Source: Escherichia coli
GTDB taxonomy: Bacteria > Pseudomonadota > Gammaproteobacteria > Enterobacterales > Enterobacteriaceae
Length of the DNA stretch: 64,000 bases
NCBI RefSeq assembly: GCF_041886205.1
Contig: NZ_CP169029.1
Direction: 5' to 3' (one strand)
Below the pieces are notes generated by a model, which had not been told where the DNA came from, made no database searches, and saw only the letters and a list, made by a program, of their open reading frames with translations. This document shows, one piece after another, positions 3,845-43,771 of the stretch. The translations under genes were made by a program, and so were the position numbers. Within the stretch, counting starts at the first letter, position 1, and every line of letters starts with the position of its first letter.

Positions 3845-4608
<764 letters not shown>

Positions 4609-7026: not shown

Positions 7027-7416
7027 ATGAAACGTTATTTACGCTGGATTGTGGCGGCAGAATTTCTGTTCGCCGCAGGGAATCTTCACGCCGTTGAGGT
7101 AGAAGTCCCGGGATTGTTAACTGACCATACTGTTTCATCTATTGGCCATGATTTTTACCGAGCCTTTAGTGATAAATGGGAAAGTGACTATACGGGTAAC
7201 TTAACGATTAATGAAAGGCCCAGTGCACGATGGGGAAGCTGGATCACTATAACGGTCAATCAGGACGTTATTTTCCAGACTTTTTTATTTCCGTTGAAAA
7301 GAGACTTCGAGAAAACTGTCGTCTTTGCACTGATTCAAACTGAAGAAGCACTAAATCGTCGCCAGATAAATCAGGCGTTATTAAGTACGGGCGATTTGGC
7401 GCATGATGAATTCTAA
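7027..7416 (+). CDS. csgE: Curli secretion specificity factor CsgE
   Basis: 129-aa ORF with signal peptide, immediately after csgD. Confidence 0.9.
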
Positions 7417-7440
7417 ATAAAAAATTGTTCGGAGGCTGCA

Positions 7441-7857
7441 ATGCGTGTCAAACATGCAGTAGTTCTACTCATGCTTATTTCGCCATTAAGTTGGGCTGGA
7501 ACCATGACTTTCCAGTTCCGTAATCCAAACTTTGGTGGTAACCCAAATAATGGCGCTTTTTTATTAAATAGCGCCCAGGCACAAAACTCGTATAAAGATC
7601 CGAGCTATAACGATGACTATGGTATTGAAACACCCTCAGCGTTAGATAACTTTACTCAGGCCATCCAGTCACAAATTTTAGGTGGGCTACTGTCGAATAT
7701 TAATACCGGTAAACCGGGCCGCATGGTAACCAACGATTATATTGTCGATATAGCCAACCGCGATGGTCAATTACAGTTGAACGTGACAGATCGTAAAACC
7801 GGACAAACTTCGACAATCGAAGTGTCGGGTTTACAAAATAACTCAACCGATTTTTAA
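7441..7857 (+). CDS. csgF: Curli assembly protein CsgF
   Basis: 138-aa ORF with signal peptide; operon position. Confidence 0.9.
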
Positions 7858-7883
7858 GCCCCAGCTTCATAAGGAAAATAATC

Positions 7884-8717
7884 ATGCAGCGCTTATTTCT
7901 TTTGGTTGCCGTCATGTTACTGAGCGGATGCTTAACCGCCCCGCCTAAAGAAGCCGCCAGACCGACATTAATGCCTCGTGCTCAGAGCTACAAAGATTTG
8001 ACCCATCTGCCAGCGCCGACGGGTAAGATCTTTGTTTCGGTATACAACATTCAGGACGAAACCGGGCAATTTAAACCCTACCCGGCAAGTAACTTCTCCA
8101 CTGCTGTTCCGCAAAGCGCCACGGCAATGCTGGTCACGGCATTGAAAGATTCTCGCTGGTTTATACCGCTGGAGCGCCAGGGCTTACAAAACCTGCTTAA
8201 CGAGCGCAAGATTATTCGTGCGGCACAAGAAAACGGTACGGTTGCCATTAATAACCGAATCCCGCTGCAGTCTTTAACGGCGGCAAATATCATGGTCGAA
8301 GGTTCAATTATCGGTTATGAAAGCAACGTCAAATCGGGCGGGGTTGGGGCAAGATATTTTGGGATCGGTGCCGACACGCAATACCAGCTCGATCAGATTG
8401 CCGTGAACCTGCGCGTCGTCAATGTGAGTACCGGTGAGATCCTCTCCTCGGTGAACACCAGTAAGACGATACTTTCCTATGAAGTTCAGGCCGGGGTTTT
8501 CCGCTTTATTGACTACCAGCGCTTGCTGGAAGGGGAAGTGGGTTACACCTCGAACGAACCCGTTATGCTGTGCCTGATGTCGGCTATCGAAACAGGGGTC
8601 ATTTTCCTGATTAATGATGGTATTGACCGTGGTCTGTGGGATTTGCAGAACAAAGCAGAACGGCAGAACGACATTCTGGTGAAATACCGCCATATGTCGG
8701 TTCCACCAGAATCCTGA
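7884..8717 (+). CDS. csgG: Curli secretion channel lipoprotein CsgG
   Basis: 277-aa ORF with lipoprotein signal (LLSGC); operon position. Confidence 0.9.
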   Translation: MQRLFLLVAVMLLSGCLTAPPKEAARPTLMPRAQSYKDLTHLPAPTGKIFVSVYNIQDETGQFKPYPASNFSTAVPQSATAMLVTALKDSRWFIPLERQGLQNLLNERKIIRAAQENGTVAINNRIPLQSLTAANIMVEGSIIGYESNVKSGGVGARYFGIGADTQYQLDQIAVNLRVVNVSTGEILSSVNTSKTILSYEVQAGVFRFIDYQRLLEGEVGYTSNEPVMLCLMSAIETGVIFLINDGIDRGLWDLQNKAERQNDILVKYRHMSVPPES

Positions 8718-11916: not shown

Positions 11917-12004
11917 GGTGAGGTGTCCGAGTGGCTGAAGGAGCACGCCTGGAAAGTGTGTATACGGCAACGTATCGGGGGTTCGAATCCCCCCCTCACC
12001 GCCA
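11917..12004 (+). tRNA. serX: tRNA-Ser (GGA anticodon, long variable arm)
   Basis: 88-nt sequence GGTGAGGTGTCCGAGTGGCTGAAGGAGCACGCCTGGAAAGTG...GGTTCGAATCCCCCCCTCACCGCCA with acceptor stem, D and T arms, CCA end; marks the island boundary. Confidence 0.9.
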
Positions 12005-23270: not shown

Positions 23271-23479
23271 CAGCTTTTCCTTACAGAGGGTGAATAAAAA
23301 AGCCGGTACCCACAAATGTGGATACCGGCAGGTACAAAACAGCATGGTCAGATAAAGTGGTTTTTCCCGGGCATAAATGCTTCCCCTCTCTCATCCGCCA
23401 GAGAAGTATCAGTCCGTTGTGTGCAATTCCGTTCTGCATGATGAAGAGATTCAGCTGCCTTTTCGCAGACCATTAACCA

Positions 23480-23530
23480 CTATAAACGATCGATAGTAAC
23501 GATCAATACCTGTTTTATCGATCGTTTTAT
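23480..23530 (-). promoter_or_regulatory. flu phase-variation switch (three GATC sites; expected Dam/OxyR target)
   Basis: GATC at 23488, 23501 and 23520 in ...AACGATCGATAGTAACGATCAATACCTGTTTTATCGATCGTTTTATTC..., about 220-250 bp upstream of the flu start. Confidence 0.6.
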
Positions 23531-28133: not shown

Positions 28134-30572
28134 ATGGCTATCAAAAAAACCGAACTCTATTCTTCCCTGTGGGCAAGCTGCGACGAACTGCGTGGCGGGA
28201 TGGACGCCAGCCAGTACAAAGACTATGTACTGACCCTGCTGTTTATGAAGTACGTTTCCGATAAGTATAAAGGCGATCCTTACGGGATGATCGTGATACC
28301 CAAAGGAGCCAGCTTTGACGATATGGTTGCGCTGAAAAATGACAAAGAGATCGGCGATAAAATCAACAAAATCATCCACAAGCTGGCGGAAGAGAACGGC
28401 CTGAAGGGCGTCATCGACGAAGCCGACTTTAACGACGAAGATAAACTCGGCAAAGGCAAGGAAATGATTGACCGCCTGAGCAAGCTTGTCGGTATCTTTG
28501 AAGGGTTAGATCTCTCCAGCAACCGGGTCGAAGGCGACGATCTGCTGGGCGATGCCTATGAATATCTGATGCGTCACTTCGCAACCGAATCCGGCAAGAG
28601 TAAAGGACAGTTTTACACTCCGGCGGAGGTGTCACGTATTCTGGCAAAGGTGATTGGTATTACTCCCGATACGCCGCGAGATGCAACGGTTTATGACCCA
28701 ACCTGTGGCTCTGGTTCGCTGCTGTTGAAAGTGAATGATGAAGCCCGGCGCGGACTGTCGATTTTCGGCCAAGAGATGGATAACGCTACCAGTGCGCTGG
28801 CGCGGATGAACATGATTCTGCATAACAATGCCACCGCGAAAATCTGGCAGGGCAATACGCTGAGTGATCCGCAGTGGAAAGAGGCGAACGGCAAACTGAA
28901 AGCCTTCGATTTTGCCGTGGCGAACCCGCCTTTTTCCAATAAAAACTGGACCAACGGGCTGACGCCGAAAAAAGATCCGTTTGAACGCTTCGGCTGGGGT
29001 ATTCCGCCGGAAAAAAACGGCGATTATGCTTTTTTGTTGCATATCATTAAAAGCCTGAAAAGTACCGGCAAAGGCGCGGTGATCCTGCCCCACGGCGTAC
29101 TGTTTCGCGGTAACGCCGAAGCGAATATCCGTGAAAACCTAATCAAGCAGGGCTATATCAAAGGCGTTATTGGTTTGCCAGCCAACCTGTTTTACGGCAC
29201 CGGCATCCCGGCGTGCATCATTGTGATTGATAAAGAGCACGCCCACAGCCGCAAAGGCATTTTTATGATCGACGCCAGTCGGGGCTTTATCAAAGATGGC
29301 AACAAGAACCGCCTGCGTAGCCAAGATATTCACCGTATTGTGGACGTGTTCAACCATCAGCGAACGGTGCCAGGCTACAGCCGGATGGTGCCCTCCAGCG
29401 AGATCGCCGGGAATGATTACAACCTGAATATTCCTCGTTATATCGAGAGTGGAGAGCCGGAAGATTTGCACGATCTGACCGCGCACTTACAGGGCGGTAT
29501 TCCAGTGCGCGATGTAGATGCTTTGAAGGATTACTGGCGGGTATTCCCTGCCCTGCGTAATGTGCTGTTTGCTGACGACCACCCCGGTTACTGCCGGGCG
29601 CAAGTGGACGCGCAGCAGGTGAAACCGACCATTCTGGCTCATCAGGAGTTTAAGGATTTTGCCACCCGCAGCCTGCTACCGTTTAAGTCGTGGGTAAAAG
29701 AGGCAGGTCTGGAAGAGATCCGCAAAGGAGATAAACCCAAAGCGCTAATCCACGATATCAGCGAAATGCTATTGGCGCAGTACGCCAACAGTGAGTTGCT
29801 GAACAAATACAGCGTGTACCAGATCCTGATGGATTACTGGGCTGATGTCATGCAGGACGATGTGTATGTGATTATGCAGGATGGCTGGAAAGCCGCCGCG
29901 CAAATCCGCGAGCTTCAGCCGGTGAAAGGCAAAGATGGCAAAAACATCTGGAAAGAAACGCACGATTTCGAGTTTACCAAACGGCGCTACAAGGCCGATG
30001 TGCTGCCCCGTTCGCTGGTGGAAATTCGCTGTTTCCCGGAACTGCTGGATGCGCTGAACCGCGCGCAGGAGCGCAGTGAAGAAGCCAGTCGTCAGCTAGT
30101 GGAATTCATCGAGGAGCAGGCAGGGGAAGAGGATCTGCTGGCTGAGGTGAAAAACGATAAAGATAAGGTGACGCAAAAGCTGGTGAATGCCCGTCTGGCA
30201 CAGTTGAAGCCCCCCCCTGCCGACCCGGATGAGCTGGCAGTGCTGAACCGCTGTCTGGCGCTGATTAAGGCCGAGGCCAGTGCGAAAAAAGCGCTGAAAG
30301 CCGCACAGGAAGCGTTGGATCGAGCGGTATTTAAACATTATCCCACGCTGGATGAAGCAGCGATTAAAACGCTGGTAGTGCAGGATAAGTGGCTGGCAAC
30401 GTTGCAGGCAGGGATCAAAGCGGAGATAGAGCGTATTACCCAGCAACTGGCGTCGCGCGTAAAGGAGCTGGAAGAGCGTTATGCTGAACCGTTGCCAGCA
30501 CTTGAAGCCGCCGTTGAGGCGTTGAGCGAGAAAGTGGCCGGGCATTTGCGGGCGATGGGGCTGGAGTGGTGA
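28134..30572 (+). CDS. hsdM: Type I restriction-modification system methyltransferase subunit M with long C-terminal extension
   Basis: 812 aa; HsdM N-terminal domain (MAIKKTELYSSLWASCDELRGGMD), AdoMet motif VYDPTCGSGSLL, catalytic NPPF (FDFAVANPPFSNKNW); about 300-aa Ala/Glu/Lys-rich helical tail. Confidence 0.9.
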   Translation: MAIKKTELYSSLWASCDELRGGMDASQYKDYVLTLLFMKYVSDKYKGDPYGMIVIPKGASFDDMVALKNDKEIGDKINKIIHKLAEENGLKGVIDEADFNDEDKLGKGKEMIDRLSKLVGIFEGLDLSSNRVEGDDLLGDAYEYLMRHFATESGKSKGQFYTPAEVSRILAKVIGITPDTPRDATVYDPTCGSGSLLLKVNDEARRGLSIFGQEMDNATSALARMNMILHNNATAKIWQGNTLSDPQWKEANGKLKAFDFAVANPPFSNKNWTNGLTPKKDPFERFGWGIPPEKNGDYAFLLHIIKSLKSTGKGAVILPHGVLFRGNAEANIRENLIKQGYIKGVIGLPANLFYGTGIPACIIVIDKEHAHSRKGIFMIDASRGFIKDGNKNRLRSQDIHRIVDVFNHQRTVPGYSRMVPSSEIAGNDYNLNIPRYIESGEPEDLHDLTAHLQGGIPVRDVDALKDYWRVFPALRNVLFADDHPGYCRAQVDAQQVKPTILAHQEFKDFATRSLLPFKSWVKEAGLEEIRKGDKPKALIHDISEMLLAQYANSELLNKYSVYQILMDYWADVMQDDVYVIMQDGWKAAAQIRELQPVKGKDGKNIWKETHDFEFTKRRYKADVLPRSLVEIRCFPELLDALNRAQERSEEASRQLVEFIEEQAGEEDLLAEVKNDKDKVTQKLVNARLAQLKPPPADPDELAVLNRCLALIKAEASAKKALKAAQEALDRAVFKHYPTLDEAAIKTLVVQDKWLATLQAGIKAEIERITQQLASRVKELEERYAEPLPALEAAVEALSEKVAGHLRAMGLEW

Positions 30573-31921
30573 TGGTGGATTTAATGGTGAATGAGCAACG
30601 GTCGGGTACGGCGGGGAAAGATGTGCCTGCGGGGTATAAGCTGACTGAGGTGGGGGTGATTCCTGAGGATTGGGTAGTAATCTCTATTGATGACTGTACA
30701 ACCAAAGTTGGTAGTGGAAAAACACCAACTGGTGGAGCATCTGTTTATATTGATAGCGGACGCCCTTTTGTCCGTAGCCAAAATGTTGATTGGGGAAGAT
30801 TAGATCTCGCCGATGTCGTACATATTACAGATGAAACCCATAACACATTCTCTGGTTCTGAAATTCAGCAAGATGATGTTTTACTCAACATAACGGGAGC
30901 ATCTATCGGCCGATGCGCTAAAGCTGATTTTAGGGTTATAGGTGGTAATGTTAACCAACATGTTTGCATCATCAGAACAGAGGCAAAAAAACTCTCCCCA
31001 TCCTTACTGGTTGAATTAATCAATTCAAATTATGGACAAAACCAGATTGATAGTTATCAAGCCGGAGGAAACAGAGAAGGACTGAATTTTTCTCAAGTTA
31101 AAAATCTTAAGTTTGCTATTACACCAAACTCCTTTGAACAAACGGAAATTGTCAGAACATTAAATGATATTAATGCATTTACTCTCGCTCTGGAAAACTT
31201 AATTGCTAAAAAACAGGCCATAAAAGCCGCTGCTATGCAACAACTACTTACCGGTAAAACCCGTTTGCCACAGTTTGCGTTGCGCAAAGATGGCTCTGCT
31301 AAGGGATATAAAAAGAGCGAGTTGGGGGAGATTCCTGAAGATTGGAATTGTATTAATCTTGGTGAGCTAGGTAATTGCATTATTGGGTTAACTTACAAAC
31401 CTGAAGATACATCTGATTATGGTACATTGGTATTACGCTCATCCAACATTCAAAATAATCACTTAGCTTATGATGATAACGTCTTCGTCAGCATAGAACC
31501 ACCTGAGCGCACAATTGTGAAAGAAGGTGATATCTTGGTATGTGTAAGAAATGGCAGTCGCCAACTTATTGGCAAATGCGCATTAATTGACAAAAATGCG
31601 CAGGGCTCAGCATTCGGTGCATTTATGTCAGTATTCCGAACTGATATATATGGATTTACATTTCACCAATTCCAGTCTGATATTATTCAAAAGCAAATCG
31701 CTGAAGTTATGGGTGCCACTATCAATCAGATAACTAACAAAGATATGTTGGGCTTTAAAATCCCATTACCTGAAAATACAGAAGAACAAGCCGCCATCGC
31801 CGCCATCCTCTCCGATATGGACAAGGAAATCCAGATCCTGCAACAGCGTCTGGACAAAACCCGCCAGCTTAAGCAAGGGATGATGCAGGAACTGTTAACC
31901 GGGAAAATCCGCTTAATATAG
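30566..31921 (+). CDS. hsdS: Type I restriction-modification specificity subunit S
   Basis: 451 aa; two target-recognition domains each followed by conserved helical repeats (QAIKAAAMQQLLTGKTRLP and QAAIAAILSDMDKEIQILQQRLDKTRQLKQGMMQELLTGKIRL); start overlaps hsdM stop. Confidence 0.9.
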   Translation: MVMVDLMVNEQRSGTAGKDVPAGYKLTEVGVIPEDWVVISIDDCTTKVGSGKTPTGGASVYIDSGRPFVRSQNVDWGRLDLADVVHITDETHNTFSGSEIQQDDVLLNITGASIGRCAKADFRVIGGNVNQHVCIIRTEAKKLSPSLLVELINSNYGQNQIDSYQAGGNREGLNFSQVKNLKFAITPNSFEQTEIVRTLNDINAFTLALENLIAKKQAIKAAAMQQLLTGKTRLPQFALRKDGSAKGYKKSELGEIPEDWNCINLGELGNCIIGLTYKPEDTSDYGTLVLRSSNIQNNHLAYDDNVFVSIEPPERTIVKEGDILVCVRNGSRQLIGKCALIDKNAQGSAFGAFMSVFRTDIYGFTFHQFQSDIIQKQIAEVMGATINQITNKDMLGFKIPLPENTEEQAAIAAILSDMDKEIQILQQRLDKTRQLKQGMMQELLTGKIRLI

Positions 31922-31933
31922 AAGGGAAAGCAC

Positions 31934-32590
31934 ATGGCTTATGATTACAGCGCCAGCCTCAACCCGCAAAAAGCTCTGATCTGGCGTATCGTCCATCGGG
32001 ACAATATCCCGTGGATTCTGGATAACGGGCTGCACTGCGGCAACAGTCTGGTGCAGGCGGAAAACTGGATCAATATCGGCAACCCGGAGCTGATCGGCAA
32101 GCGTGCCGGGCATCCGGTACCTGTCGGAACGGGCGGGACACTGCATGACTATGTGCCGTTTTATTTTACCCCCTTCTCGCCAATGCTGATGAACATCCAC
32201 AGCGGGCGCGGCGGCATTAAGCAACGCCCCAATGAGGAGATCGTTATTCTGGTCAGCAACTTGCGAAACGTGGCAGCACACGACGTACCCTTCGTGTTTA
32301 CCGACAGCCATGCTTACTATAACTGGACCAACTACTACACCAGTCTGGATAGTCTGGACCAGATCGACTGGCCCATTTTGCAGGCACGGGACTTTCGCCG
32401 CGATCCAGACGATCCGGCTAAATTTGAACGCTATCAGGCAGAGGCGCTAATCTGGCAACACTGCCCGATCTCTCTGCTGGATGGGATAATTTGTTACAGC
32501 GAAGAGGTCAGGTTACAATTAGAACAATGGCTGTTTCAGCGTAATCTAACAATGTCCGTTCACACACGGGCTGGATGGTACTTCTCATGA
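31934..32590 (+). CDS. darT: DarT-like ssDNA ADP-ribosyltransferase toxin (DUF4433)
   Basis: 218 aa; motifs [30 protein letters not shown] and QAEALIW align by eye with DarT family; RBS GAAGGGA upstream; 16-bp overlap with darG. Confidence 0.85.
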
Positions 32591-33654
32591 TCACATATAC
32601 ACAAGGCAATTTACTGGACGCACCGGTGGAAGCTCTGGTGAATACGGTTAATACCGTCGGTGTCATGGGGAAAGGCATCGCGTTGATGTTTAAAGAGCGC
32701 TTCCCCGAAAATATGAAAGTCTATGCCCTCGCCTGCAAACAAAAGCAGGTGATCACCGGCAAAATGTTCATTACCGAAACCGGGGAACTGATGGGACCGC
32801 GCTGGATTGTTAATTTTCCGACCAAACAGCACTGGCGCGCTGATTCCCGCATGGAGTGGATTGAAGATGGCTTGCAGGACTTACGCCGCTTTTTGATTGA
32901 AGAGAACGTGCAGTCCATCGCCATTCCACCACTGGGCGCAGGCAACGGTGGTTTGAACTGGCCGGACGTTCGGGCGCAGATTGAATCTGCCCTTGGCGAC
33001 CTTCAGGACGTTGATATCCTGATTTACCAACCGACTGAAAAATACCAGAACGTTGCCAAAAGCACTGGCGTAAAAAAGCTCACTCCCGCCAGAGCCGCCA
33101 TCGCTGAACTGGTGCGTCGCTACTGGGTATTGGGGATGGAGTGCAGCCTACTGGAAATCCAGAAACTGGCCTGGCTGTTACAACGCGCCATTGAGCAGCA
33201 TCAACAGGACGATATCCTCAAACTGCGGTTTGAAGCTCACTATTATGGCCCCTATGCGCCCAATCTGAACCATCTGCTTAATGCGCTGGACGGCACCTAT
33301 CTTAAAGCCGAGAAACGCATCCCGGACAGCCAACCGCTGGATGTGATCTGGTTTAACGATCAGAAAAAAGAACACGTTAATGCGTATCTGAACAACGAAG
33401 CCAGAGAGTGGCTACCTGCGCTGGAGCAGGTCAGCCAGTTAATTGACGGCTTTGAATCGCCGTTTGGTCTGGAGTTGCTGGCAACCGTAGACTGGTTGCT
33501 GAGCCGTGGCGAATGTCAACCAACGCTGGATTCCGTTAAGGAAGGGCTGCACCAGTGGCCTGCGGGCGAACGCTGGGCCAGCCGTAAGTTGAGGCTGTTT
33601 GATAATAATAATCTGCAATTTGCCATTAACCGCGTAATGGAGTTCCATTGCTGA
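32575..33654 (+). CDS. darG: DarG-like macrodomain antitoxin (ADP-ribosylglycohydrolase)
   Basis: 359 aa; N-terminal macrodomain ([36 protein letters not shown]) plus C-terminal domain; translationally coupled to darT. Confidence 0.85.
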
Positions 33655-33672
33655 GGGTTTAAGGAGCGCCTT

Positions 33673-36600
33673 TTGAGTACCGTGGGCCAGCGCGAACGCG
33701 CCACACAGCAGCGTCTGATTCAGTTTTTTGTTGAAGATTTAGGTTACCGCCATCTGAGTCACCGCACCGGGTACACCGGGAACAGCAACATCGACACTAA
33801 TATACTGAGCGCGTGGCTAAAACGGCGCGGCGTTAATGATACGTTGATCACCCGGGCGTTGCGGCAACTGGATTCCGCCGCCGCTCTGGGCGAAGGCAAA
33901 AAACTCTATTACGCCAATAAAGAGGTCTATCGCCTACTGCGTTACGGCGTGAAAGACAAAGAAGGCGCAGGCGAGCAGAACCAAACCGTGTGGCTGATTG
34001 ACTGGGCCAACCCACAAGCCAATGATTTCGCCATCGCCGATGAGGTGACGGTCAAAGGCGAGTACTGCAAGCGCCCGGATCTGGTGCTGTACGTTAACGG
34101 CATTGCGCTGGGCGTGATTGAACTTAAGCGTTCGTCAGTGCACGTCAGCGAAGGCATCCGGCAGAATCTCGATAATCAAAAGAAAACCTTTATCCGCGAT
34201 TTCTTCACCACTATGCAGTTAGTGATGGCGGGCAACGATACGCAGGGCCTGCGCTACGGCACCATCGAAACCCCGGAAAAATACTATCTGGAGTGGAAAG
34301 AAGATAATCCAGGCGACTATACACATAAACTCGACTTTCATTTAAGTCGTCTGTGTAGCAAATCCAGGCTGTTGGATATCGTCCATAATTACATTGCCTT
34401 TGATGTCGGGGTGAAAAAACTCTGCCGCCATAATCAGTTCTTCGGCGTCGAGGCGGCTAAACAACATATTGCCCGTCGTGAAGGCGGTATTATCTGGCAC
34501 ACACAGGGATCGGGTAAAAGCCTGACGATGGTCTGGCTGGCGAAGTGGATCCGTGAAAATGTGCCAAACTCCCGCGTGTTGATTGTGACTGACCGCACCG
34601 AACTGGATGAACAGATCGAAAGCGTGTTTATGGGCGTGAATGAAGATATTTATCGCACCTCCAGCGGCAACGATCTTATCGCAACGCTCAATCATCCTAA
34701 CCCGTGGCTCATTTGCTCGCTGGTGCATAAATTTGGTCGTCGCAGCGAAGCTGAAGACAATGCAGCTACCGACGCCTTTATCACCGAATTACAGCACTCC
34801 CTGACGAAAACATTCCGCGCCAAAGGCGATCTGTTTGTTTTTGTGGACGAGTGCCACCGCACACAATCCGGCAAGCTGCATAACGCCATGACTGCCATTC
34901 TGCCGGACGCCCTGTTTATCGGTTTTACCGGCACACCGCTGATGAAGAAAGATAAGAAGAAGTCGGTTGAGGTGTTCGGCCCTTATATCCATACCTATAA
35001 ATTTGATGAAGCGGTGGCCGACGGTGTGGTGCTGGATCTGCGCTACGAGGCACGCGATATTGACCAGTATCTGACATCAGAGAAAAAGGTCGATGACTGG
35101 TTTGAAGCCAAGACTCGCGGTTTGTCGAATTTAGCTAGGACCCAGCTTAAGCAAAAGTGGGGATCAATGCAGAAGCTGCTCTCCAGCAAGTCGCGGCTGG
35201 AGCAGATCGTTAACGACATTTTGCTGGATATGGATACCCGTCCACGCCTGATGGACGGGCGCGGCAACGCCATGCTGGTATGCAGCAGTATCTATCAAGC
35301 CTGCAAGGTTTACGAGATGTTCAGCCAGACCGAGCTGGCAGGAAAAGTAGCGATTGTGACCAGCTATCGCCCCGATGCCGCCAGCATCAAAGGCGAAGAA
35401 ACGGGCGAAGGGTTAACGGAGAAACTCTCTAAACACGCCACCTATCGTAAAATGTTGGCTGACTATTTTGAACAAAGTGAAGAGAAGGCCGCCGCACGCA
35501 TTACCGAGTTCGAGCGGGAAGTGAAACAGCGTTTTATTGAAGAGCCGGGGCAAATGCGCCTGCTTATCGTGGTGGATAAGCTGCTGACTGGCTTTGACGC
35601 GCCGTCCGCCACCTATCTCTACATTGATAAAACCATGACCGACCATACGCTGTTTCAGGCGATTTGTCGGGTGAACCGGCTGGACGGTGAGGATAAAGAG
35701 TATGGCTATATTATCGATTATAAAGATCTGTTCCGTTCGCTGGATAAAGCGATTACCGATTACACCACGGGCGCGTTTGATGATTACGATCGGGACGATG
35801 TGGCCGGGTTGCTGAAAGACAGGCTAGAGCAGGCGCAACTGGATCTCGACAGCGCGCTGGAGATGGTTCGCAGCTTATGTGAACCCGTCAAAACCCCGCG
35901 CAGCCTGCAGGACTATCAGCACTATTTTTGCGGTGAATCAGGAGAGAATCAGACTTCGTTAAACGAAAAAGAGGCGCTGCGCCTGACATTTTACCAGTGC
36001 GTCGCCCGTCTGCTACGCGCTTATGCCAACATCGCCAATGAAATGCCGGAAGCAGGCTACACTGCCGAAGAGGTAGAGAGCATTCGCGCCGAAGTCGCTG
36101 AATTCGAAAAACTGCGCTATGAGATTAAGCTGACCAGCGGCGATCTTCTGGATATGAAGCGCTTTGAACCCGCTATGCGTCATTTACTGGATATGTATGT
36201 TCGCGCCGATGATAGCGAAGTGCTGATGGATTTTGAAGAGTTAAGTCTGATTGAACTGATTGTCGAGAAAGGCTTGGCGGCGACCGTCGCCCTGCCGGAT
36301 GATATCCGTAATAATCAGGATGCGATGGCGGAAACCATCGAAAACAACGTGCGCAAAACCATCGTGGATGAAAACCCGGTTAACCCAAAATACTATGGAC
36401 GCATGTCGCAACTGCTGGATGAACTGATTACCCTTCGCCGACAAAATGCGCTCAATTATCAGCAGTATCTGGAACGTATCCGCGATTTGTGTAAACAGGT
36501 CATCCGCCCGGAGCAAACCGCCGGAGCGTGCTACCCTGCCACCATGGATACACAAGCAAAGCGCGCCTTCTATGATAACTTCGGCCACGACGAGGTACTG

Positions 36601-36768
36601 GCGACCCGCATAGATACGACGATTCGCTATACCAAAAGGGCAGAGTGGATTGGCGATCGTTTTAAAGAACGGGAAATTGCCAACGCATTACGTGAAGAGA
36701 CCGCCAGCTATAATATTGATATTGATGAGGTGATAGCGCTTGCCCGTCAGCAGAAGGAATATCACTGA
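33673..36768 (+). CDS. hsdR: Type I restriction enzyme endonuclease/translocase subunit R
   Basis: 1031 aa; helicase motifs GSGKSLTM (Walker A) and FVFVDECHR (DEAH-like), N-terminal nuclease region; probable TTG start at 33673 preceded by AAGGAG. Confidence 0.9.
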   Translation: MSTVGQRERATQQRLIQFFVEDLGYRHLSHRTGYTGNSNIDTNILSAWLKRRGVNDTLITRALRQLDSAAALGEGKKLYYANKEVYRLLRYGVKDKEGAGEQNQTVWLIDWANPQANDFAIADEVTVKGEYCKRPDLVLYVNGIALGVIELKRSSVHVSEGIRQNLDNQKKTFIRDFFTTMQLVMAGNDTQGLRYGTIETPEKYYLEWKEDNPGDYTHKLDFHLSRLCSKSRLLDIVHNYIAFDVGVKKLCRHNQFFGVEAAKQHIARREGGIIWHTQGSGKSLTMVWLAKWIRENVPNSRVLIVTDRTELDEQIESVFMGVNEDIYRTSSGNDLIATLNHPNPWLICSLVHKFGRRSEAEDNAATDAFITELQHSLTKTFRAKGDLFVFVDECHRTQSGKLHNAMTAILPDALFIGFTGTPLMKKDKKKSVEVFGPYIHTYKFDEAVADGVVLDLRYEARDIDQYLTSEKKVDDWFEAKTRGLSNLARTQLKQKWGSMQKLLSSKSRLEQIVNDILLDMDTRPRLMDGRGNAMLVCSSIYQACKVYEMFSQTELAGKVAIVTSYRPDAASIKGEETGEGLTEKLSKHATYRKMLADYFEQSEEKAAARITEFEREVKQRFIEEPGQMRLLIVVDKLLTGFDAPSATYLYIDKTMTDHTLFQAICRVNRLDGEDKEYGYIIDYKDLFRSLDKAITDYTTGAFDDYDRDDVAGLLKDRLEQAQLDLDSALEMVRSLCEPVKTPRSLQDYQHYFCGESGENQTSLNEKEALRLTFYQCVARLLRAYANIANEMPEAGYTAEEVESIRAEVAEFEKLRYEIKLTSGDLLDMKRFEPAMRHLLDMYVRADDSEVLMDFEELSLIELIVEKGLAATVALPDDIRNNQDAMAETIENNVRKTIVDENPVNPKYYGRMSQLLDELITLRRQNALNYQQYLERIRDLCKQVIRPEQTAGACYPATMDTQAKRAFYDNFGHDEVLATRIDTTIRYTKRAEWIGDRFKEREIANALREETASYNIDIDEVIALARQQKEYH

Positions 36769-37484
36769 TGCCAATCATGCAAATAGGCTCGTTACACTTG
36801 CTGGTCAACCGTAAGGCGATTAAGAATCTGCATATCAGCGTGCTGCCGCCTGATGGCAAAGTCCGCGTTTCAGCGCCGGAACATATGACGGAGACGGCGA
36901 TTCGTATGGCGGTTGCTTCACGCTTTCGCTGGATCAGAAAACAGCAGCAGGATTTCGCCAGACAGCCTCGTCAATCAGAGAGGGAAATGGTCAGCGGAGA
37001 GTGCCACTATCTTTGGGGCCGAAGATATCGCCTACTTGTGATTGAGCGTCACGGGCGTCACGAAGTAAAAGTTGCGGGAAATAATAAGCTCCAGCTTTAT
37101 GTTCAACCGGGAACCCGTGATGAAAATAAGGCATTGGCGTTAAGTGAATTTTATCGACATGAACTAAAACAGCAGGTGGCTAAGCTTCTACCTGAATGGC
37201 AGGACCGAATCGGTGTTCCCCTAACATTCTGGGGCATCAAAAAGATGAAAACCTTTTGGGGCACCTGTAACACTACAACAAAACGAATCTGGCTCAATCT
37301 GGAGCTAATTAAGAAGCCGCCGGAGTGTCTGGAGTATATTCTGGTGCATGAACTGGTTCATCTTCTGGAACGTCACCATAATGCTCGCTTCCGGTTGCAT
37401 ATGGATCGGTTTATTCCTGACTGGCGTGAGCGTCGGGATTTGTTAAATAATATGCCGTTAGCGTTTGAGGCATGGGAGTATTGA
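36768..37484 (+). CDS. M48/DUF45-family zinc metallohydrolase (YgjP/WLM-like)
   Basis: 238 aa; HExxH motif in ILVHELVHLLERHHNARF; start overlaps hsdR stop, indicating co-transcription. Confidence 0.7.
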   Translation: MPIMQIGSLHLLVNRKAIKNLHISVLPPDGKVRVSAPEHMTETAIRMAVASRFRWIRKQQQDFARQPRQSEREMVSGECHYLWGRRYRLLVIERHGRHEVKVAGNNKLQLYVQPGTRDENKALALSEFYRHELKQQVAKLLPEWQDRIGVPLTFWGIKKMKTFWGTCNTTTKRIWLNLELIKKPPECLEYILVHELVHLLERHHNARFRLHMDRFIPDWRERRDLLNNMPLAFEAWEY

Positions 37485-38023
37485 TTGAGCCTGTAACTGT
37501 TTTTTGTCCATAAATTAACCTTCATTTGATGCTGGATTGAACATATCAAAATCAGACAATTACACAAATCTATGTACAGGCTCAACTCCTGCCATGGAAC
37601 GTAGTACTCACCAATAAGTAAGCATCAATACGGCGCTCCGTTAACGCTTACTAGCATGGTTATCTCCTTAAAAAATTGAGGCGACAACTATGCTGACGCA
37701 GGGGGGTATTGGGTGATCTCCTTCCATGAAAATACGCAGCTTGATTGCATTAAATTTATTTAATTTGCACTAATTTTGTTTAAGTTACATTACCACACGT
37801 GGGATATTGGAATACAAGCAACGCGAGGAATCAGTAAATATACCAATAATTGTATCACCCCTTTAATATTCATTAAGGTTTCAGGCCCTCCGGCACGATT
37901 CACCTGGCGAATCAATTCACGAGTCGCCCCAGAGTCACCGCCAATAAACATGCGATTCAACTCCCGATTCGATTCTCACTAATCTATTGTTTTATATAAA
38001 GATAGTCAGTACTGACTCTGTGA

Positions 38024-38063
38024 CGACTCGCCGATGACTTGCCATAGAGTCATCGGCGAGTCG
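38024..38063. repeat. Perfect 16-bp inverted repeat (hairpin) with 8-nt loop
   Basis: CGACTCGCCGATGACT-TGCCATAG-AGTCATCGGCGAGTCG; no flanking T/A run, so not a classical terminator. Confidence 0.45.
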
Positions 38064-38273
38064 GATCGGCATAATAAAAATTATCATAACGTAATTCTGA
38101 AATTATAACTTTATGATTTTAAATACCTATCAGCAAAAACTTGGTTTTGCATGGGGTGTGGAGATTTTGAGGTAAGAAGCAGGCTATCGTAAAATAGCCT
38201 GCTGGGATGGATTCAGTAATCACCGAATAAATTGCGGAGCAAAAAAACCGCCAATCAAGAGATGGGTTAGCAA

Positions 38274-38609
38274 TCAATTTTCGTATTTAAATTCAATATT
38301 AATCTTTAAAGCCTCTACATCTACTGTCACTTCACAGCCATGCCAGAATGGTTTTTCCTGAGATTTAAAGTTATCTAGAAAATAATTTCTTAATTCCACA
38401 AGAAAATCAAATAAATCACCGTTTGCTTGTGCCCCTGCCGAAAACCAATCAGTATTGCCAGTATCTGCATTTATATAGTCAAATTCACATTTACAATGAT
38501 CATTTTCAGGAGACAGTTCTGCTCTCATGATCACTTTGGATGCATTTTCAGGCGCAATGGATAGCAATACTGAACCTATATCATTATAAATCTCTTGATC
38601 AGTCCTCAC
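38274..38609 (-). CDS. Putative CdiI-type immunity protein of orphan module
   Basis: 111-aa ORF whose ATG directly follows the stop of the VENN-containing toxin fragment; no family recognised, assignment by gene context. Confidence 0.5.
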   Translation of the reverse strand: MRTDQEIYNDIGSVLLSIAPENASKVIMRAELSPENDHCKCEFDYINADTGNTDWFSAGAQANGDLFDFLVELRNYFLDNFKSQEKPFWHGCEVTVDVEALKINIEFKYEN

Positions 38610-39038
38610 CTACTTACCTCCGGGTACATTTTTAAACGTTTCAGATACCGGCCTTATGCTGTTACCTGTATAAGATGGCTGGATATTAACTTTAATGCTC
38701 ACTATCCCTGACTCATCCATCTGCTGCATCAACAGAACGGATAAGTCATTCTTCATTGCCCACGGAATATCTTCACCCAATGCCCTGTCTATGGCTTCGT
38801 GAACCAACAAACTGTTAGCAGGGATGTCACCGTACTTCTCTTTGCAGGCTGTCGGGCTCGAAGCACATGTTGCGATCAGTTCATTACGCTGCTTGAGACT
38901 CAGATCTTCCATTTCTTTCACGATCTGACCACAGTCACCACGGGCCTCACAACCTTTCGCCCTCGCCGCAAAGTTATCGATCTGATCAGCACTCAGGTAG
39001 TTATTCTCAACAACAATCCCAACTAAAAGGGTTGGGAT
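38610..39038 (-). CDS. Orphan CdiA C-terminal toxin fragment (VENN motif, no N-terminal region)
   Basis: Reverse-strand frame opens after TAA-TGA stops and reads IPTLLVGIVVENNYLSADQIDNFAARAKGCEARGDCGQIVKEMEDLSLKQ...; VENN encoded at 39000-39011; only an internal ATG. Confidence 0.6.
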   Translation of the reverse strand: MPTLLVGIVVENNYLSADQIDNFAARAKGCEARGDCGQIVKEMEDLSLKQRNELIATCASSPTACKEKYGDIPANSLLVHEAIDRALGEDIPWAMKNDLSVLLMQQMDESGIVSIKVNIQPSYTGNSIRPVSETFKNVPGGK

Positions 39039-39039
39039 T
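39013..39039. repeat. Hairpin at junction of the two toxin/immunity modules
   Basis: AATCCCAAC-TAAAAGG-GTTGGGATT between the stop of the 147-aa gene and the VENN fragment. Confidence 0.4.
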
Positions 39040-39047
39040 CATTACCC

Positions 39048-39491
39048 TTATGTATAAAGACTATCGTCGTAGGGTGCTTCAGTCAGAATTTTTTGAATTT
39101 CATGTCGTGCTTTTAGCTCCCATGAAAGATTCATATTTGCCATTAACTCAATAAATTTTGGGAACGCGATACGTCGTCCATCTCTGCCTTTAACCCTGTG
39201 TTCTAATTCATATTGGAATGCTGTCTTATAAGCGAGTTCTGACATGATCCAATAAAGTAGCTCATCTAGTGACCTAGTAACCTTCCGCGAGAATTCATAA
39301 CCTCTTTCTGAATGAATGTAATTATATACATTGTTTTCAAATGTAACATATGGTGTGCCATCACCAATTGGAGCGGAACAAAGATTAACTGAATGTCTTG
39401 GGAGACCAGCTTGCAAGGTCAACGCGTCAATTTTCCTTTGTATTTCATTGATATTCAGCAACATATTAGCGAACCTCACGAATATATCCAT
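39048..39491 (-). CDS. Putative immunity protein of upstream orphan toxin module
   Basis: 147-aa ORF whose start overlaps the 3' end of an upstream start-less toxin-like frame by about 26 nt. Confidence 0.45.
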   Translation of the reverse strand: MDIFVRFANMLLNINEIQRKIDALTLQAGLPRHSVNLCSAPIGDGTPYVTFENNVYNYIHSERGYEFSRKVTRSLDELLYWIMSELAYKTAFQYELEHRVKGRDGRRIAFPKFIELMANMNLSWELKARHEIQKILTEAPYDDSLYT

Positions 39492-39747
39492 TCTTCAATA
39501 GCCATTCCACATTCACTCGATCTTGCATATTAGGTAATATCTGAATCCCCCCTCCAGGCTCACCAAAAGCGGGGGCAATCTTTCCTTGTATAGCAGGCAA
39601 GGGTTTTATTACCTCATATTCATAGTATTTATATGAACGCATCCCGTTTGCAAGGCATCCATTGTTTTGACATGACGGGTAGGTTGCAGCTTTATATCCG
39701 GCTTTATTGCAGCCGTAACGCTGCGAGCCCCTATGTAATTCGCCGAC
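39466..39747 (-). pseudogene. Truncated toxin C-terminal domain remnant (no start codon)
   Basis: Hand translation of the reverse strand gives an open frame of about 93 codons (VGELHRGSQRYGCNKAGYKAATYPSCQNNGCLANGMRSYKYYEYEVIKPLPAIQGKIAPAFGEPGGGIQILPNMQDRVNVEWLLKNGYIREVR) bounded upstream by TGA and adjacent to the IS110-family element. Confidence 0.35.
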
Positions 39748-39904
39748 TCACCCCTTATTTTCACGGCGGACTTCAAGCCCAAAATACTGTTCAGGTTTAG
39801 TGAGTCACGGTCTTACCTGTCTTTGTCATCACTCTGGCCGCCATAGCAACCTTTCAGCATTCACCCTTTTGTTAAGAGTTCATTGTTTAATGGTATCAGC
39901 GATT

Positions 39905-40056
39905 AATATGGTCTGATACTGACGTGGTTCCTGTCATACTTACGGTCATGGGCGGTTATCGCCCATACTGTTCGTGCCAGCTTGTTTGCCATGGCGACGA
40001 TTGCCACACTGGCTGGACGACGTTTTTTCAGTTCGGTTATCCACGGGCCAGGCTCT
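39905..40056 (-). pseudogene. IS110-family transposase, 3' part (separated from 5' part by IS66 insertion)
   Basis: Reverse translation reads EPGPWITELKKRRPASVAIVAMANKLARTVWAITAHD..., in frame with the 289-aa fragment at 42760-43629 once IS66 and one copy of the 8-bp duplication are removed. Confidence 0.6.
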
Positions 40057-40094
40057 TTAGCTACGTAAGCGACTCGTCAGAACCGTATTGATAT

Positions 40095-41666
40095 TTACTG
40101 AGAGCTCAGATCAACTTTCCAGGGCAACAGATCGCGTACCCGGTTTGCCGGCCAGTCCTGGATATGTTCAATGACGTAACGCAGCCACTTTTCTGGCTCC
40201 ACATTGTTCAGACGGCATGTGCCGATCAGCGAGTACAACACCGCCGCATGTTCACCACCGCTGTCGGAACCCGCGAACATCCAGTTTTTCCGGCCTACGG
40301 CCACTCCCCGTAAGGCGTTCTCTGCGATGTTGTTGTCGATTTCCACCCAGCCATTACTGCAGTACACGTTCAGTGCATCCCACTGTTTCAGCAGGTATGC
40401 GAACGCTTTTGCCGTATCTGAGTGACGCGACAGTGTTTTCATCTGTTGCTGTATCCAGTCATACAGTGACTGCATCAGTGGCGCGGCTCTGGCTTTTCTT
40501 GCCGCCAGACGCTGTTCTGCTGAACAGCCCCGGACCTCTGCCTCGATGGCATACAGTTCACCGATACGCTGCAGGGCTTCCGTGGTGATGTAGGTGGACG
40601 CTCTTGCATGCACATCGTGGATTTTTCTCCGGGCATGAGCCATACACGCGGCTTCCGTTATTCTGCCGGATTCGTATAACGCCCGGTAACCACCGTAAGC
40701 ATCGGCCTGAAGCACACCGCTGTAACCGGCCAGGTGATTTTGTGGATGGATACCTTTCCGGTCCGGACTGTACGCGAACCAGACCGCCGGGGGCATCTGT
40801 GAACCGGCGTTACGGTCATCACGGACGTAGACCCACAGCCGGGCTGTCCGGGTTTTACCGCTGCCCGGCTCCTGGACCGGGACGGGGATATCATCAGCAT
40901 GGACTTTACCGGGCATCAGCACATACTGGCGCAGGACGTCATACAGCGGCTCCAGCAGTTCAGCAACAGCACCTGTCCAGCGCCCCAGTGTGGCACGGCT
41001 CAGCTCCACTCCCTGACGACGGTATATTTCTGACTGGCGGTATAACGGCAGATGGTCTGCATATTTCCCGGTGACAACATGGGCCAGAAGCCCCGCTCCG
41101 GCATAACTGCGTGCAATGGGTTTTGAAGGTACTGGTGCCTGCACGATATGGTCGCACCGGCAACAGGCCTGTTTCGGACGTTGTGTTTCGATAACCTTAA
41201 AGGCGCTGCTGATAAGCTCCAGTTGCTCTGACACATCACATCCCAGAGAACTGAGTTCACCACCACAGGCAGGACAGCATTCCTCTTCCGGCCGGATAAC
41301 CCGGGTTTCACGGGGAAGTGAGGCCGGTAACGGTTTACGGGCTGAAGACTGGCGCAGGGCGGATGGCAGTACCGGGTCATATTGCTCACCCAGCGTTTCC
41401 GCCATTTCTTCCTGAAGTGCGCTGATTCGCTCCTGTGCTTCCTGTATCTGCCGTTCGGTTTTTGCACGAAGTTTTTCTGAGCTTTTACCGAACTGCATAC
41501 GTTGCAGTTTCGCAACCAGCGCCTTCAGCCGGTTGATTTCGGAAGCATAAGCCGCCACCCGCTGTGAGAGCAGGCGGTTGTATTCAGCCATCTGGCGGAT
41601 GGTGTCCTGTTGCGTCTGCAACAGTGCCCGCAGGCGGGCGTTCTCATGAGCAAGTGAGGTGTCCAT
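40095..41666 (-). CDS. IS66-family transposase (TnpC/orf3)
   Basis: 523 aa with N-terminal coiled-coil/leucine zipper, Cys-rich zinc-binding segment and DDE region. Confidence 0.9.
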
Positions 41667-41685
41667 ATCCTCACTTTACAACGGG

Positions 41686-42033
41686 TTATATGCGGATTCC
41701 AGCGCGTTCCGTTCGTTTCGGGTGCTTCCAGTTGATACCTTCAAGAAGCATGGATAACTGAGCCGGAGTAAGGTGCACCTTGCCGTCACGGGTGACTGGC
41801 CAGACGAAGCGGCCCCGCTCCAGGCGTTTGGTGAAGAGGCACAGTCCGTCACTGTCAGCCCACAACACTTTTATCTGGTCACCCCGGCGTCCGCGGAAGA
41901 TGAACAGGTGTCCGGAGAACGGGTCATCCTTCAGGACGTTCTGAACTTTTGATGCCAGGCCGTTAAAGCCATTTCGCATATCGGTGATACCTGCAACCAG
42001 CCAGATACGCGAACCTGCAGGGAGAGATATCAT
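41686..42033 (-). CDS. IS66 Orf2 (TnpB-like accessory protein)
   Basis: 115 aa MISLPAGSRIWLVAGITDMRNGFNGLASKVQNVLKDDPFSGHLFIFRGRRGD... Confidence 0.9.
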   Translation of the reverse strand: MISLPAGSRIWLVAGITDMRNGFNGLASKVQNVLKDDPFSGHLFIFRGRRGDQIKVLWADSDGLCLFTKRLERGRFVWPVTRDGKVHLTPAQLSMLLEGINWKHPKRTERAGIRI

Positions 42034-42710
42034 CAGTGGCTGCTCCCTTTTATTTCGCGGATAAGTGTCTGTAATAACGCCGGCGTCAGTTTACCTTTAA
42101 GCCTGAGAGTTCCGGCCGGCAGAACCAGCTCACAACACAGACTGTCGGACGGTGTATTTATCTGCTCTGGTTCCTGTGCGGGGGCCGGGATTTTATTATC
42201 CGGCTCCGGCGTTAACGTCACGGGAAGCAGTGCCGGCATATTTTTTCCGGAAGGCAGCAGGCCACCTTTCCGGTATTGATGGCGCCAGTTGAAGAGCAGG
42301 TTATCGTTGATTCCGTTTTCCCGGGCGATCTGCGCCACACAGGCTCCGGGCTGCAGTGACTGCTCCACTAAGGCGATTTTAAACTCATAAGGGAAGTTGG
42401 GCCGCCGGGGACGTTTTTTTACCACGGGGGCTTCGGATATAACGGTGCTTTCAGGACGTACGACTGGTACCGTGGAAAATTGTCCGTAAAGGCAGGCATC
42501 AAGTTCCTGCTCCGACATGCCTGCGGGCAAAGGCCACGAAAGGCCAGCTCTCCGAAAGCGCACGAACATACTACAAACTGTTGATTTTGGTACACCCAGG
42601 CGACGCCCGGCCACAACCCGGGGTAAATGTTCTTCAAAGTGAAGACGTAAAGCTTCAGTGATCCAGGTCCGGTGTTTCATACGATAGTGTCCATTAAAAA
42701 TGATGGACAT
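42033..42710 (-). CDS. IS66 Orf1 (HTH accessory protein)
   Basis: 225-aa ORF with helix-turn-helix region; first gene of the IS66 element. Confidence 0.8.
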   Translation of the reverse strand: MSIIFNGHYRMKHRTWITEALRLHFEEHLPRVVAGRRLGVPKSTVCSMFVRFRRAGLSWPLPAGMSEQELDACLYGQFSTVPVVRPESTVISEAPVVKKRPRRPNFPYEFKIALVEQSLQPGACVAQIARENGINDNLLFNWRHQYRKGGLLPSGKNMPALLPVTLTPEPDNKIPAPAQEPEQINTPSDSLCCELVLPAGTLRLKGKLTPALLQTLIREIKGSSH

Positions 42711-42759
42711 TATTTTTGTAGAGCCGGAGGAAACAGACCAGACGGTTTAAATGAGCCGG

Positions 42760-43629
42760 TTACTTAGCTACTAATGCCACCGCTCTTGCACCGTGGATAA
42801 ATAATGTCCTGAGATAAGTGTCACCACGTTTGCTTATCCCCAGCAGACGTACTTTCCCTCCGGAGCCAGTTTGTTTTGGAACCAGACCAACATATGCGGC
42901 GAACTCTCGCCCCGATTTAAACGCTGATGCTTCCCCCATGGTGGCCACCGCTGCCGTCGCAATAAGTGGTCCAACGCCAGGAATATCCAGCAACCGCTTA
43001 CAGGTTTCATTCTGCCTCGCCACGCTGGTAAGCTGTTTTTCAATATCCTCTATCAGTGAGTCCAGCTCATTCAGTCGGTTGTACTGGTTTTCCAGAACCA
43101 TAATGAGATACGGTGGCAGTCTCTCTTTCATCCGTTCCAGTGCTTCGGGGAACTCCCGCTCCATCGCTGCCCGGCCTTTGTGGATGGTTTCACCAAACTC
43201 CAGTAACGTCCCGTGCAGGGCATTAATTTGTGCGGTCCGGAACTTCACCAGTTGCATGCGGGTACGGTGCAGAACCAGTACCGACTGCTGTTCTTCTGTT
43301 TTTACGGCGATTTCTTTACCCGGCTGCTGAACCGCCATCCAGATAGCCCGGGCATCCATCACATCATTCTTATTGCCCATGACGAATGCCTTAACGAAGC
43401 GGGCCTGCAACAACCGGACTTTATGACCAAGTTTTGTCAGTTCCCGTGCCCAGTGCTGAGAACCTCCACAGGCCTCCATACCAATCAGGCATGGCTCACG
43501 GTTGCCGAAGAACATCAGAAAATCCTGTCTACGCAACTGTTTATCAACCACTTCACCTGTGTGCTCATTGATGAAGTGAATCTGAATGACATGTTTTGCG
43601 ATATCAACGCCAACCGGTGTATATTTCAT
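42760..43629 (-). pseudogene. IS110-family transposase, 5' part (disrupted by IS66)
   Basis: 289-aa ORF with DEDD-type N-terminus (MKYTPVGVDIAKHVIQIHF...) and DIPGVGPLIATAAVATMGE motif; reading frame terminates inside the IS66 junction. Confidence 0.8.
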
Positions 43630-43771
43630 TTGTGGAGTCTCCAGTCTGAGGGAGCTTTATGCATCCCGTATTGGGCACTATGATGCCGGAAATCTGCGAG
43701 GCTCCACACCTGCCAGTTTCACCCTTTTAACCATCATACTGCTCCGTGTTTAATTGTGTGGGATGCGTTCA

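Follow-up and report, generated by a model that had tools for sequence, protein, structure and literature searches.

Traces of a decayed orphan cdiA-CT/cdiI array with intact immunity genes in Escherichia coli

We analyzed 64,000 nt of Escherichia coli DNA (NCBI RefSeq assembly GCF_041886205.1, contig NZ_CP169029.1), a stretch referred to below as the window. On its minus strand, at 38274-39038, it carries an element that a preliminary description had taken for an orphan toxin-immunity module of contact-dependent inhibition (CDI), that is, the C-terminal toxin region (CT) of a CdiA protein followed by a cdiI immunity gene. Comparison with the sequences of complete loci indicates that the region is very probably the leftover of an E. 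coli CDI locus, namely the distal end of an orphan array that decayed in place. The CT has lost its nuclease domain, and two immunity genes, cdiI and an Imm63-family gene upstream of it, are intact.

Results

We found the open frame with its VENN motif where it had been reported, right after stop codons on the minus strand. It follows the stops TAA 39050-39048, TAA 39044-39042 and TGA 39041-39039, runs from 39038 to TAG 38612-38610, and encodes GIVVENNYLSADQ (its start also given as IPTLLVGIVVENNYLSADQ and IPTLLVGIVVENNYLSADQIDNFAARAKGCEARGDCGQIVKEMEDL), with the VENN codons at 39011-39000 being the sole GTNGARAAYAAY site in the whole 64 kb. Between the GTT of VENN and 38100, 907 of 911 aligned bases (99.6%, the CT being counted outside the deletions described below) match the 3' end of cdiA, the cdiI gene and the downstream flank of E. 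coli O157:H7 TW14588, whereas upstream of VENN we found no similarity to TW14588. Because the DNA from VENN onward matches a real cdiA-CT/cdiI, the region is a genuine CDI remnant. TW14588 carries a 3235-aa cdiA (9.7 kb; WP_096938779.1) together with cdiB, has cdiI (WP_001258403.1) immediately after cdiA, and its cdiBAI adjoins the same hsdM-hsdS-darT-darG-hsdR-M48 island as the window module. Over 1541 nt, the window locus is also 100% identical to that of strain ZYB62. The 'GIV' preceding VENN, initially read as pretoxin sequence, turned out to overlap a stem-loop (39039-39015) whose 3' arm supplies the 'GI' of GIVVENN; homology to cdiA begins only at VENN.

The identification as a cdiA-CT/cdiI module of the orphan type was borne out, as the module starts at VENN, lacks initiation signals, carries a cdiI with its own Shine-Dalgarno (SD) sequence and is nearly identical to the ends of full CdiA loci. 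It lies directly after the Imm63 gene and a TNT-domain CT remnant, that is, behind another immunity gene of a cdi locus, and its CT is homologous from VENN onward to the CTs of full-length CdiA proteins. We found no in-frame ATG, GTG or TTG between 39038 and GTG 38921 and no SD for the CT, neither GTG 38921 nor the internal ATG being preceded by one. That ATG had been called the only start in the frame, but the first in-frame start, GTG 38921, comes three codons ahead of it. The 111-aa open reading frame (ORF) does stand directly after the CT stop as stated, but it starts with GTG at 38609 rather than ATG, with a GGAGG SD (38621-38617) located 7 nt upstream, within the end of the CT frame. As also reported, no cdiB or cdiA body is present in the window: besides hsdR and Ag43, none of the ORFs of at least 150 aa exceeds 812 aa. 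Contrary to what had been proposed, the module is not displaced: it occupies the native end of an orphan CDI array, beside M48-hsdR. At this site, TW14588 has its cdiBAI and the sister locus L006 an intact cdiA array. With a complete toxin, the module occurs as an orphan within the arrays of mouse strains (M1/M3/M8); it is likewise an orphan within an array in cow strain C4, where the nuclease lacks a 14-aa C-terminal segment only. Strains with an armed full CdiA bearing this CT include O157:H7 TW14588 and O111:H11 8D.

Two in-frame deletions set the window CT apart from its parents. In the full TW14588 CdiA/CT, Pfam detects PT-VENN (4.8e-19) and Endonuclea_NS_2 (2.2e-39) alongside a Cys-rich entry region, and the nuclease aligns to the Staphylococcus aureus type VII secretion system (T7SS) nuclease EssD/EsaD (E 1.5e-16), with GGHLIA falling on the catalytic H528, the residue mutated to Ala in PDB 8GUN (PMC9616950). 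Deletion 1 takes away the linker together with positions 1 to ~104 of the Endonuclea_NS_2 model, and with them the catalytic His of GGHLIA; the junction of this 498-nt deletion shows no microhomology. Deletion 2 lies between the copies of an 8-bp direct repeat, AAGGCCGG, and the window has one of the two copies left. Of the CT, the remnant retains ~100 aa from the Cys-rich region for cytoplasm entry, plus the 28 C-terminal aa of the nuclease. In Pfam, this fragment gave only a residual Endonuclea_NS_2 match (model positions 104-123, E 0.44), which falls short of a complete PF13930 domain with its catalytic His and metal-binding Asn helix, and no match to PT-VENN (PF04829), as only the VENN tetrapeptide of the ~50-aa pretoxin domain is retained.

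Because the two deletions took out almost the whole EssD/EsaD-like His-Me-finger nuclease domain, the window toxin is, judged by its sequence, dead and the CT an inert remnant, which is also without a translation start and without a secretion context. A usable reservoir of toxin diversity, or a functional pair, as initially envisaged, is not what a CT missing 166 + 14 codons and its nuclease domain would provide: with the catalytic domain deleted, no active toxin is expected for the cognate CdiI to neutralize, and expression of the CT from the internal ATG is predicted to be nontoxic. Strain C4 carries the 42-nt deletion 2 alone, and we read its allele as an intermediate in CT decay. The exact product of the doubly deleted allele occurs on 51 public contigs and three near-identical products occur on 34, 61 and 8 more. 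An assembly artefact was considered as a source of the deletions and rejected, since the allele recurs on ~150 independent contigs in two variants. RefSeq annotates a 103-aa hypothetical protein from GTG 38921 in the CT frame, which is best treated as a cdiA-CT pseudogene fragment. None of the proteins scanned against NCBIfam (the full CT and its window fragment, the TNT remnant, Imm63, CdiI and a 573-aa ORF considered as a possible cdiB) matched a family above cut-off; a PADLOC scan of the three small proteins gave no match, and hence they are not a known phage-defence system; and an Rfam scan of the whole window had no match in or near the CDI locus.

The immunity protein of the module is unaltered. 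The 111-aa product is 100% identical to the CdiI of TW14588 (WP_001258403.1), its exact sequence occurs on 971 public contigs, and cdiI is genetically paired with an EssD-like CT in TW14588, M3 and C4. Pfam gave a weak match to the YezG-like family PF04634 (i-Evalue 4.6e-4, residues 6-111) and NCBIfam a sub-threshold match to TIGR01741, a family of EsaG paralogues, and there are 75 CdiI homologues across Enterobacterales, Pseudomonas and Acinetobacter, many of them named YezG or DUF600 with a precomputed PF04634 assignment. An AlphaFold (AF2) model of CdiI (pLDDT 91.7) points to a DUF600 fold: Foldseek returned as its top matches the DUF600 protein BH3703 (2IA1, 3I0T) and EsaG (8GUO_A), with query-based TM-scores (TMq) of 0.71-0.74 and E ~1e-6, the next match after the DUF600 structures having an E of 0.08. 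An EssD-like toxin with an EsaG-like immunity protein would be coherent, by analogy, with the Gram-positive pairs EsaD/EsaG and YeeF/YezG. In annotation, the 111-aa 'hypothetical protein' is best treated as a YezG/EsaG-family CdiI.

Upstream of the module, insertion sequence (IS) elements are present as described, but a 54-codon toxin remnant and an Imm63 gene (39630-39048) had been overlooked. The two are adjacent and each matches its family profile (Table 1), the TNT part being partial in the window: this CT was truncated by an IS110-family insertion, and homology to intact TNT CTs begins at 39630. An intact TNT CdiA-CT precedes the Imm63 gene in IGC_RcoliRes_1.1 (L003), L006 and L008, and in strain IGC_RcoliRes_1.1 the TNT CT terminates a full-length cdiA. 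From this gene arrangement, we take the Imm63 protein to be the partner of a TNT-domain toxin. Considered as a possible widespread recombination or terminator element, the Imm63-hairpin-VENN junction was present in just 2 of the 5426 complete E. coli genomes, a number too small for covariation to be assessed. The stems of the window's stem-loop (39015-39039) and of that in L003 (~6040-6065, IGC_RcoliRes_1.1) differ by what looks like a compensatory change from A-T to G-C, seen in these two genomes only.

Sister loci, recovered by exact-sequence look-up of the truncated CT product in public assemblies, allowed us to arrange the decay of the array into stages. In stage A (L006), a full-length cdiA of 3149 aa (two-partner secretion, Fil_haemagg_2, PT-VENN) is followed by a DUF596 cdiI and further orphans, and the array ends with a TNT orphan starting at VENN, Imm63, the deleted CT and cdiI, beyond which lies M48-hsdR. 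This locus is collinear with 39630-37300 of the window, with 1 mismatch in 2331 nt, and has its full-length cdiA 3.4 kb upstream of the corresponding module; its layout indicates that the ancestral locus had an intact cdiA and an array of four orphan modules. In stage B (L013, L015-L017), a 1439-nt IS110-family ISEc11 forms a clean simple insertion in the TNT orphan, with both orphan halves kept. In stage C (L012, L019), an IS66 fragment and a uhpC-like gene stand in place of all that lay upstream of the left end of the IS, and ISCro1 is lacking, whereas in stage D (L014, ZYB62 and the window) ISCro1 is inserted into ISEc11. All IS transposase genes are co-directional with the immunity genes. 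ZYB62 additionally carries an ISEc23 inserted at 38160-38167, with an 8-bp duplication on its flanks.

The absence of cdiBA is thus due to IS events that shortened the array. Because cow strain C10 has an ISEc11 copy inside an IS66 tnpB beside uhpC, which equals the other flank of the window, we infer that homologous recombination between two ISEc11 copies most simply accounts for how cdiB, cdiA and the proximal orphans were lost. In the order of events, the CT of the last orphan lost its nuclease by the two in-frame deletions, and the TNT orphan was split by ISEc11. Through recombination of this ISEc11 with another copy, cdiB and cdiA would have disappeared along with the remaining orphans. 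ISCro1 finally landed in ISEc11, leaving the immunity-only pair of Imm63 and EsaG-like CdiI. The sister assemblies form an unusually complete stepwise record of such decay, with a microhomology deletion, an IS110 insertion, an IS-IS recombination and a nested IS insertion. As a separate observation, other ISEc11-like IS110 copies in unrelated contexts match the window for ~7-10 nt past the IS end (window 39621-39631), and these shared bases hint at a conserved target, as expected for site-specific insertion in the IS110 family.

Table 1. Coordinates of the CDI remnant and adjoining features in the window
Feature	Position	Strand	Remarks
Native flank downstream of the module	37707..38273	-	Common to the orphan arrays of M3 and C4
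Orphan cdiI, intact 111-aa EsaG/YezG (DUF600)-type immunity gene	38274..38609	-	GTG start; no spacer after the CT stop
Orphan cdiA-CT remnant	38610..39011	-	VENN 39011-39000 to TAG 38612-38610; open frame reaches 39038
Deletion 2 junction	38648..38655	-	42 nt (14 codons, DKFYVEYSINGGRP), in frame
Deletion 1 junction	38695..38696	-	498 nt (166 codons), in frame
Intergenic stem-loop	39015..39039	-	Stem of 9 bp, loop of 7 nt; lies after the Imm63 stop and ahead of VENN
Imm63-family immunity gene, intact, 138 aa	39048..39464	-	ATG 39464; Pfam Imm63 (PF15599) 3e-29; RefSeq annotation in ZYB62
TNT-domain orphan CdiA-CT 3' remnant	39466..39630	-	54 codons + stop; Pfam TNT (PF14021) 5.8e-14, model 39-88 of 88
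IS110-family (ISEc11-like) element truncating the array	39631..43776	-	Split by ISCro1 (IS66 family), ~40069-42763

Some 210 nt downstream of cdiI, a perfect palindrome (38024-38063; 16-bp arms, 8-nt spacer, CGACTCGCCGATGACT / AGTCATCGGCGAGTCG) is kept in the flanks of M3, C4 and TW14588; it may be a terminator or an element resembling a repetitive extragenic palindrome (REP) or a miniature inverted-repeat transposable element (MITE). A repeat search of 37500-39700 revealed nothing else of note. A 32-nt sequence (37707-37738) is common to the M48 flank and to the flank distal to the CDI array. In C4 (L005), two copies of it (4057-4088 and 8608-8639), 4.5 kb apart, bracket extra orphans (DUF596 modules, ISEc20), and the single copy in the window suggests that distal orphans were deleted between the repeats. 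At 37584-37651, in the downstream flank of M48, lies a 68-nt solo remnant that is 94% identical to a terminus of the IS66-family ISEc23 and is also present in TW14588.

Other arrays of this kind hold further modules. At 2587-3477, L007-L009 have a second orphan of the Endonuclea_NS_2 type, which is intact (260 aa) and whose partner, of 125 aa, is a different one. In the entry domain, its DNA shares 77% identity with the window CT, making it a paralogous EssD-like module in one array. In L006, the main cdiA has AENN (~5100) and one orphan IENN (7319-8068) instead of VENN, the latter followed by a 92-aa predicted membrane protein, possibly forming a toxin/immunity pair of the ionophore type.

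In the wider surroundings, 28134-37484 on the plus strand holds DarT/DarG (31934-33654) inside a type I restriction-modification operon, hsdM-hsdS-darT-darG-hsdR, followed by a gene for an M48/YgjP-like metallopeptidase, a block that flanks CDI loci in TW14588, C4 and L006-L019 as well. A tRNA-Ser(GGA) at 11917-12004 probably marks the integration site of the island. An Ag43 autotransporter gene (20424-23345) and two Rfam matches, the ES056 small RNA (6225-6316) and an IS102 RNA (23289-23525), are unrelated to the CDI remnant.

Discussion

The GTNGARAAYAAY pattern had at least one match in 23 of 100 shuffled sequences, such that the motif alone is within chance; a VENN arising by chance was considered and rejected on the DNA identity with cdiA. 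Our reading of the locus as an in-place CDI remnant with EsaG-like immunity has several points weighing against it. For the family of the immunity protein, a phmmer search of the PDB with CdiI alone placed EsaG on top but at an E of only 0.53, a PDB search with a 38-sequence CdiI profile gave no match at E up to 1, and CdiI is ~50 aa shorter than EsaG. Its EsaG-family assignment is weak on sequence alone and rests mainly on the predicted fold and on the pairing with an EssD-like toxin. Regarding expression, a consensus scan of 37500-40200 found no sigma-70-like promoter on the minus (coding) strand, and the cdi promoter is absent from the window locus. Toxicity and immunity of this CT/CdiI pair are predictions, and the intact immunity ORFs appear to be a weak sign of selection, since intactness is weakly informative where the divergence from functional loci is close to nil (4 substitutions in 911 nt).

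That the two immunity genes are still functional comes close to an even call, tilted slightly toward the negative. Both ORFs, Imm63 and cdiI, are intact with their own ribosome-binding sites. With the cdi promoter lost, any transcription of them would have no obvious source but read-through from the IS transposase genes, which run in the same direction; on the coding strand, no terminator-like site was predicted between those genes and the immunity genes. In that case, when neighbors with this CT on a full CdiA deliver its nuclease domain, CdiI would bind the domain and inactivate it as EsaG does EsaD, and Imm63 would by analogy act likewise against TNT-type CTs. The immunity against CDI+ neighbors that had been proposed from the outset appears plausible given the intact cdiI, although the cdi promoter is gone.

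A serious competitor, which we rate at somewhat less than one chance in two, is that Imm63 and cdiI are silent, unselected leftovers that are too young to have mutated. The locus has been stripped of the cdi promoter, cdiB and cdiA, the coding strand shows no promoter-like site upstream, many IS elements occur across the locus, and the near-zero divergence deprives the intact ORFs of much of their information. Three independent lesions (two deletions and one IS insertion) have nonetheless all occurred in toxin-coding sequence, while both immunity ORFs, their SDs and their starts are untouched in ~150 contigs; in addition, the co-directional transposase genes are followed by no predicted terminator-like site before the immunity genes, and orphan cdiI genes are expressed in EC93.

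We also considered, as an unlikely extension of the in-place decay, that the locus was actively converted to an immunity-only 'cheater' island, in which the loss of both toxins and of the CdiBA delivery machinery was selected or tolerated and Imm63 and CdiI are expressed by IS read-through. If true, such an island would protect a bovine commensal lineage from CDI+ neighbors of the Shiga toxin-producing E. coli (STEC) type, and a corollary would be that EsaG-style toxin-splitting, from the Gram-positive T7SS, operates in Gram-negative CDI with a shortened 111-aa immunity protein.

A function for the 103-aa in-frame product itself (entry region plus C-terminal nuclease strands), whether as a decoy, as a CdiI partner or by translational coupling to cdiI, is very improbable: it is true that neither deletion shifts the frame, that the ORF stops immediately ahead of the cdiI GTG, that the allele has persisted on many contigs, in two versions of its sequence, and that a C-terminal fragment of EsaD binds EsaG independently (PMC9616950), yet two in-frame deletions have a 1 in 9 probability by chance, neither GTG 38921 nor the ATG has an SD, Pfam, NCBIfam and PADLOC gave no family match, and cdiI has a strong SD of its own. 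Hardly any credence is left for a functional orphan module whose CT is active and can be re-armed by recombination onto cdiA or expressed from an internal start, given that, despite an intact VENN, entry region and cdiI, an open frame and the functional orphan CTs of EC93, EC869 and Dickeya, 180 codons are gone, among them those for the ββα-Me catalytic core (GGHLIA and the helix bearing the Asn), Pfam detection of the nuclease is lost (residual E 0.44) and no cdiA is left in the locus as a recombination partner.

Overall, the in-place remnant of a CDI locus that we describe is an ordinary, already understood kind of genomic remnant, of which the window is a decayed new example. Taken alone, the finding is of little importance, as orphan CDI modules, how they decay and how orphan immunity genes are kept have all been on record since 2011. 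Of wider relevance is that the module belongs to an experimentally uncharacterized class of CDI toxins, an EssD/EsaD-like DNase with a short EsaG-like CdiI, which links Gram-negative CDI to Gram-positive T7SS toxin-immunity biology; our literature search found no description of this class within CDI.

Orphan cdiA-CT/cdiI modules downstream of cdiBAI are known from EC93 (o1) and EC869 (o1-o11), with the EC93 orphans being co-transcribed from the cdi promoter and the homology of orphans to full-length CdiA beginning precisely at VENN (Poole et al. 2011, PLoS Genet, PMC3150448). Like these, the window module starts at VENN right after the preceding immunity gene without CT initiation signals, has a cdiI with its own SD and start, is homologous from VENN to the CdiA of another strain, and stands in an array that IS elements disrupt. 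Unlike them, its toxin domain is internally deleted, so that the module is immunity-only, and unlike in EC93 the main cdiBA and the cdi promoter are absent from the locus. Compared to TW14588, which keeps Endonuclea_NS_2, the CdiI is identical and the CT DNA 99.6% identical, and with both TW14588 and C4 the window shares the chromosomal neighborhood M48-hsdR-darTG. The orphans of M1/M3/M8 and C4 keep Endonuclea_NS_2 too, that of C4 lacking only the 14-aa C-terminal segment.

The S. aureus EsaD(EssD)/EsaG and Bacillus subtilis YeeF/YezG systems are nuclease-immunity pairs of type VII secretion (Wang et al. 2022, PMC9616950; PDB 8GUO). The full CT nuclease resembles EsaD in its alignment to EssD (1.5e-16) and its conserved catalytic His, and CdiI resembles EsaG in its predicted DUF600 fold (TMq 0.74) and weak YezG-like Pfam match. 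Delivery differs, as it proceeds by a Gram-negative two-partner-secretion CdiA with VENN and an entry domain instead of T7SS/LXG, and CdiI is ~50 aa shorter than EsaG. Inhibition by toxin-splitting is putative for this CT/CdiI pair.

It is an established notion that orphan immunity genes are kept (PMC3150448, PMC9086364). A stand-alone orphan cdiI in genomes without cdiBA is represented by a Salmonella Typhi islet homologous to the CdiI of EC869, as cited in PMC9086364. Both there and in the window, immunity genes are kept without a working delivery system or toxin, the role proposed in that citation being protection from CDI+ competitors. Unlike for the S. Typhi islet, sister assemblies make it possible to follow, step by step, how a complete array was reduced to the immunity-only remnant of the window.

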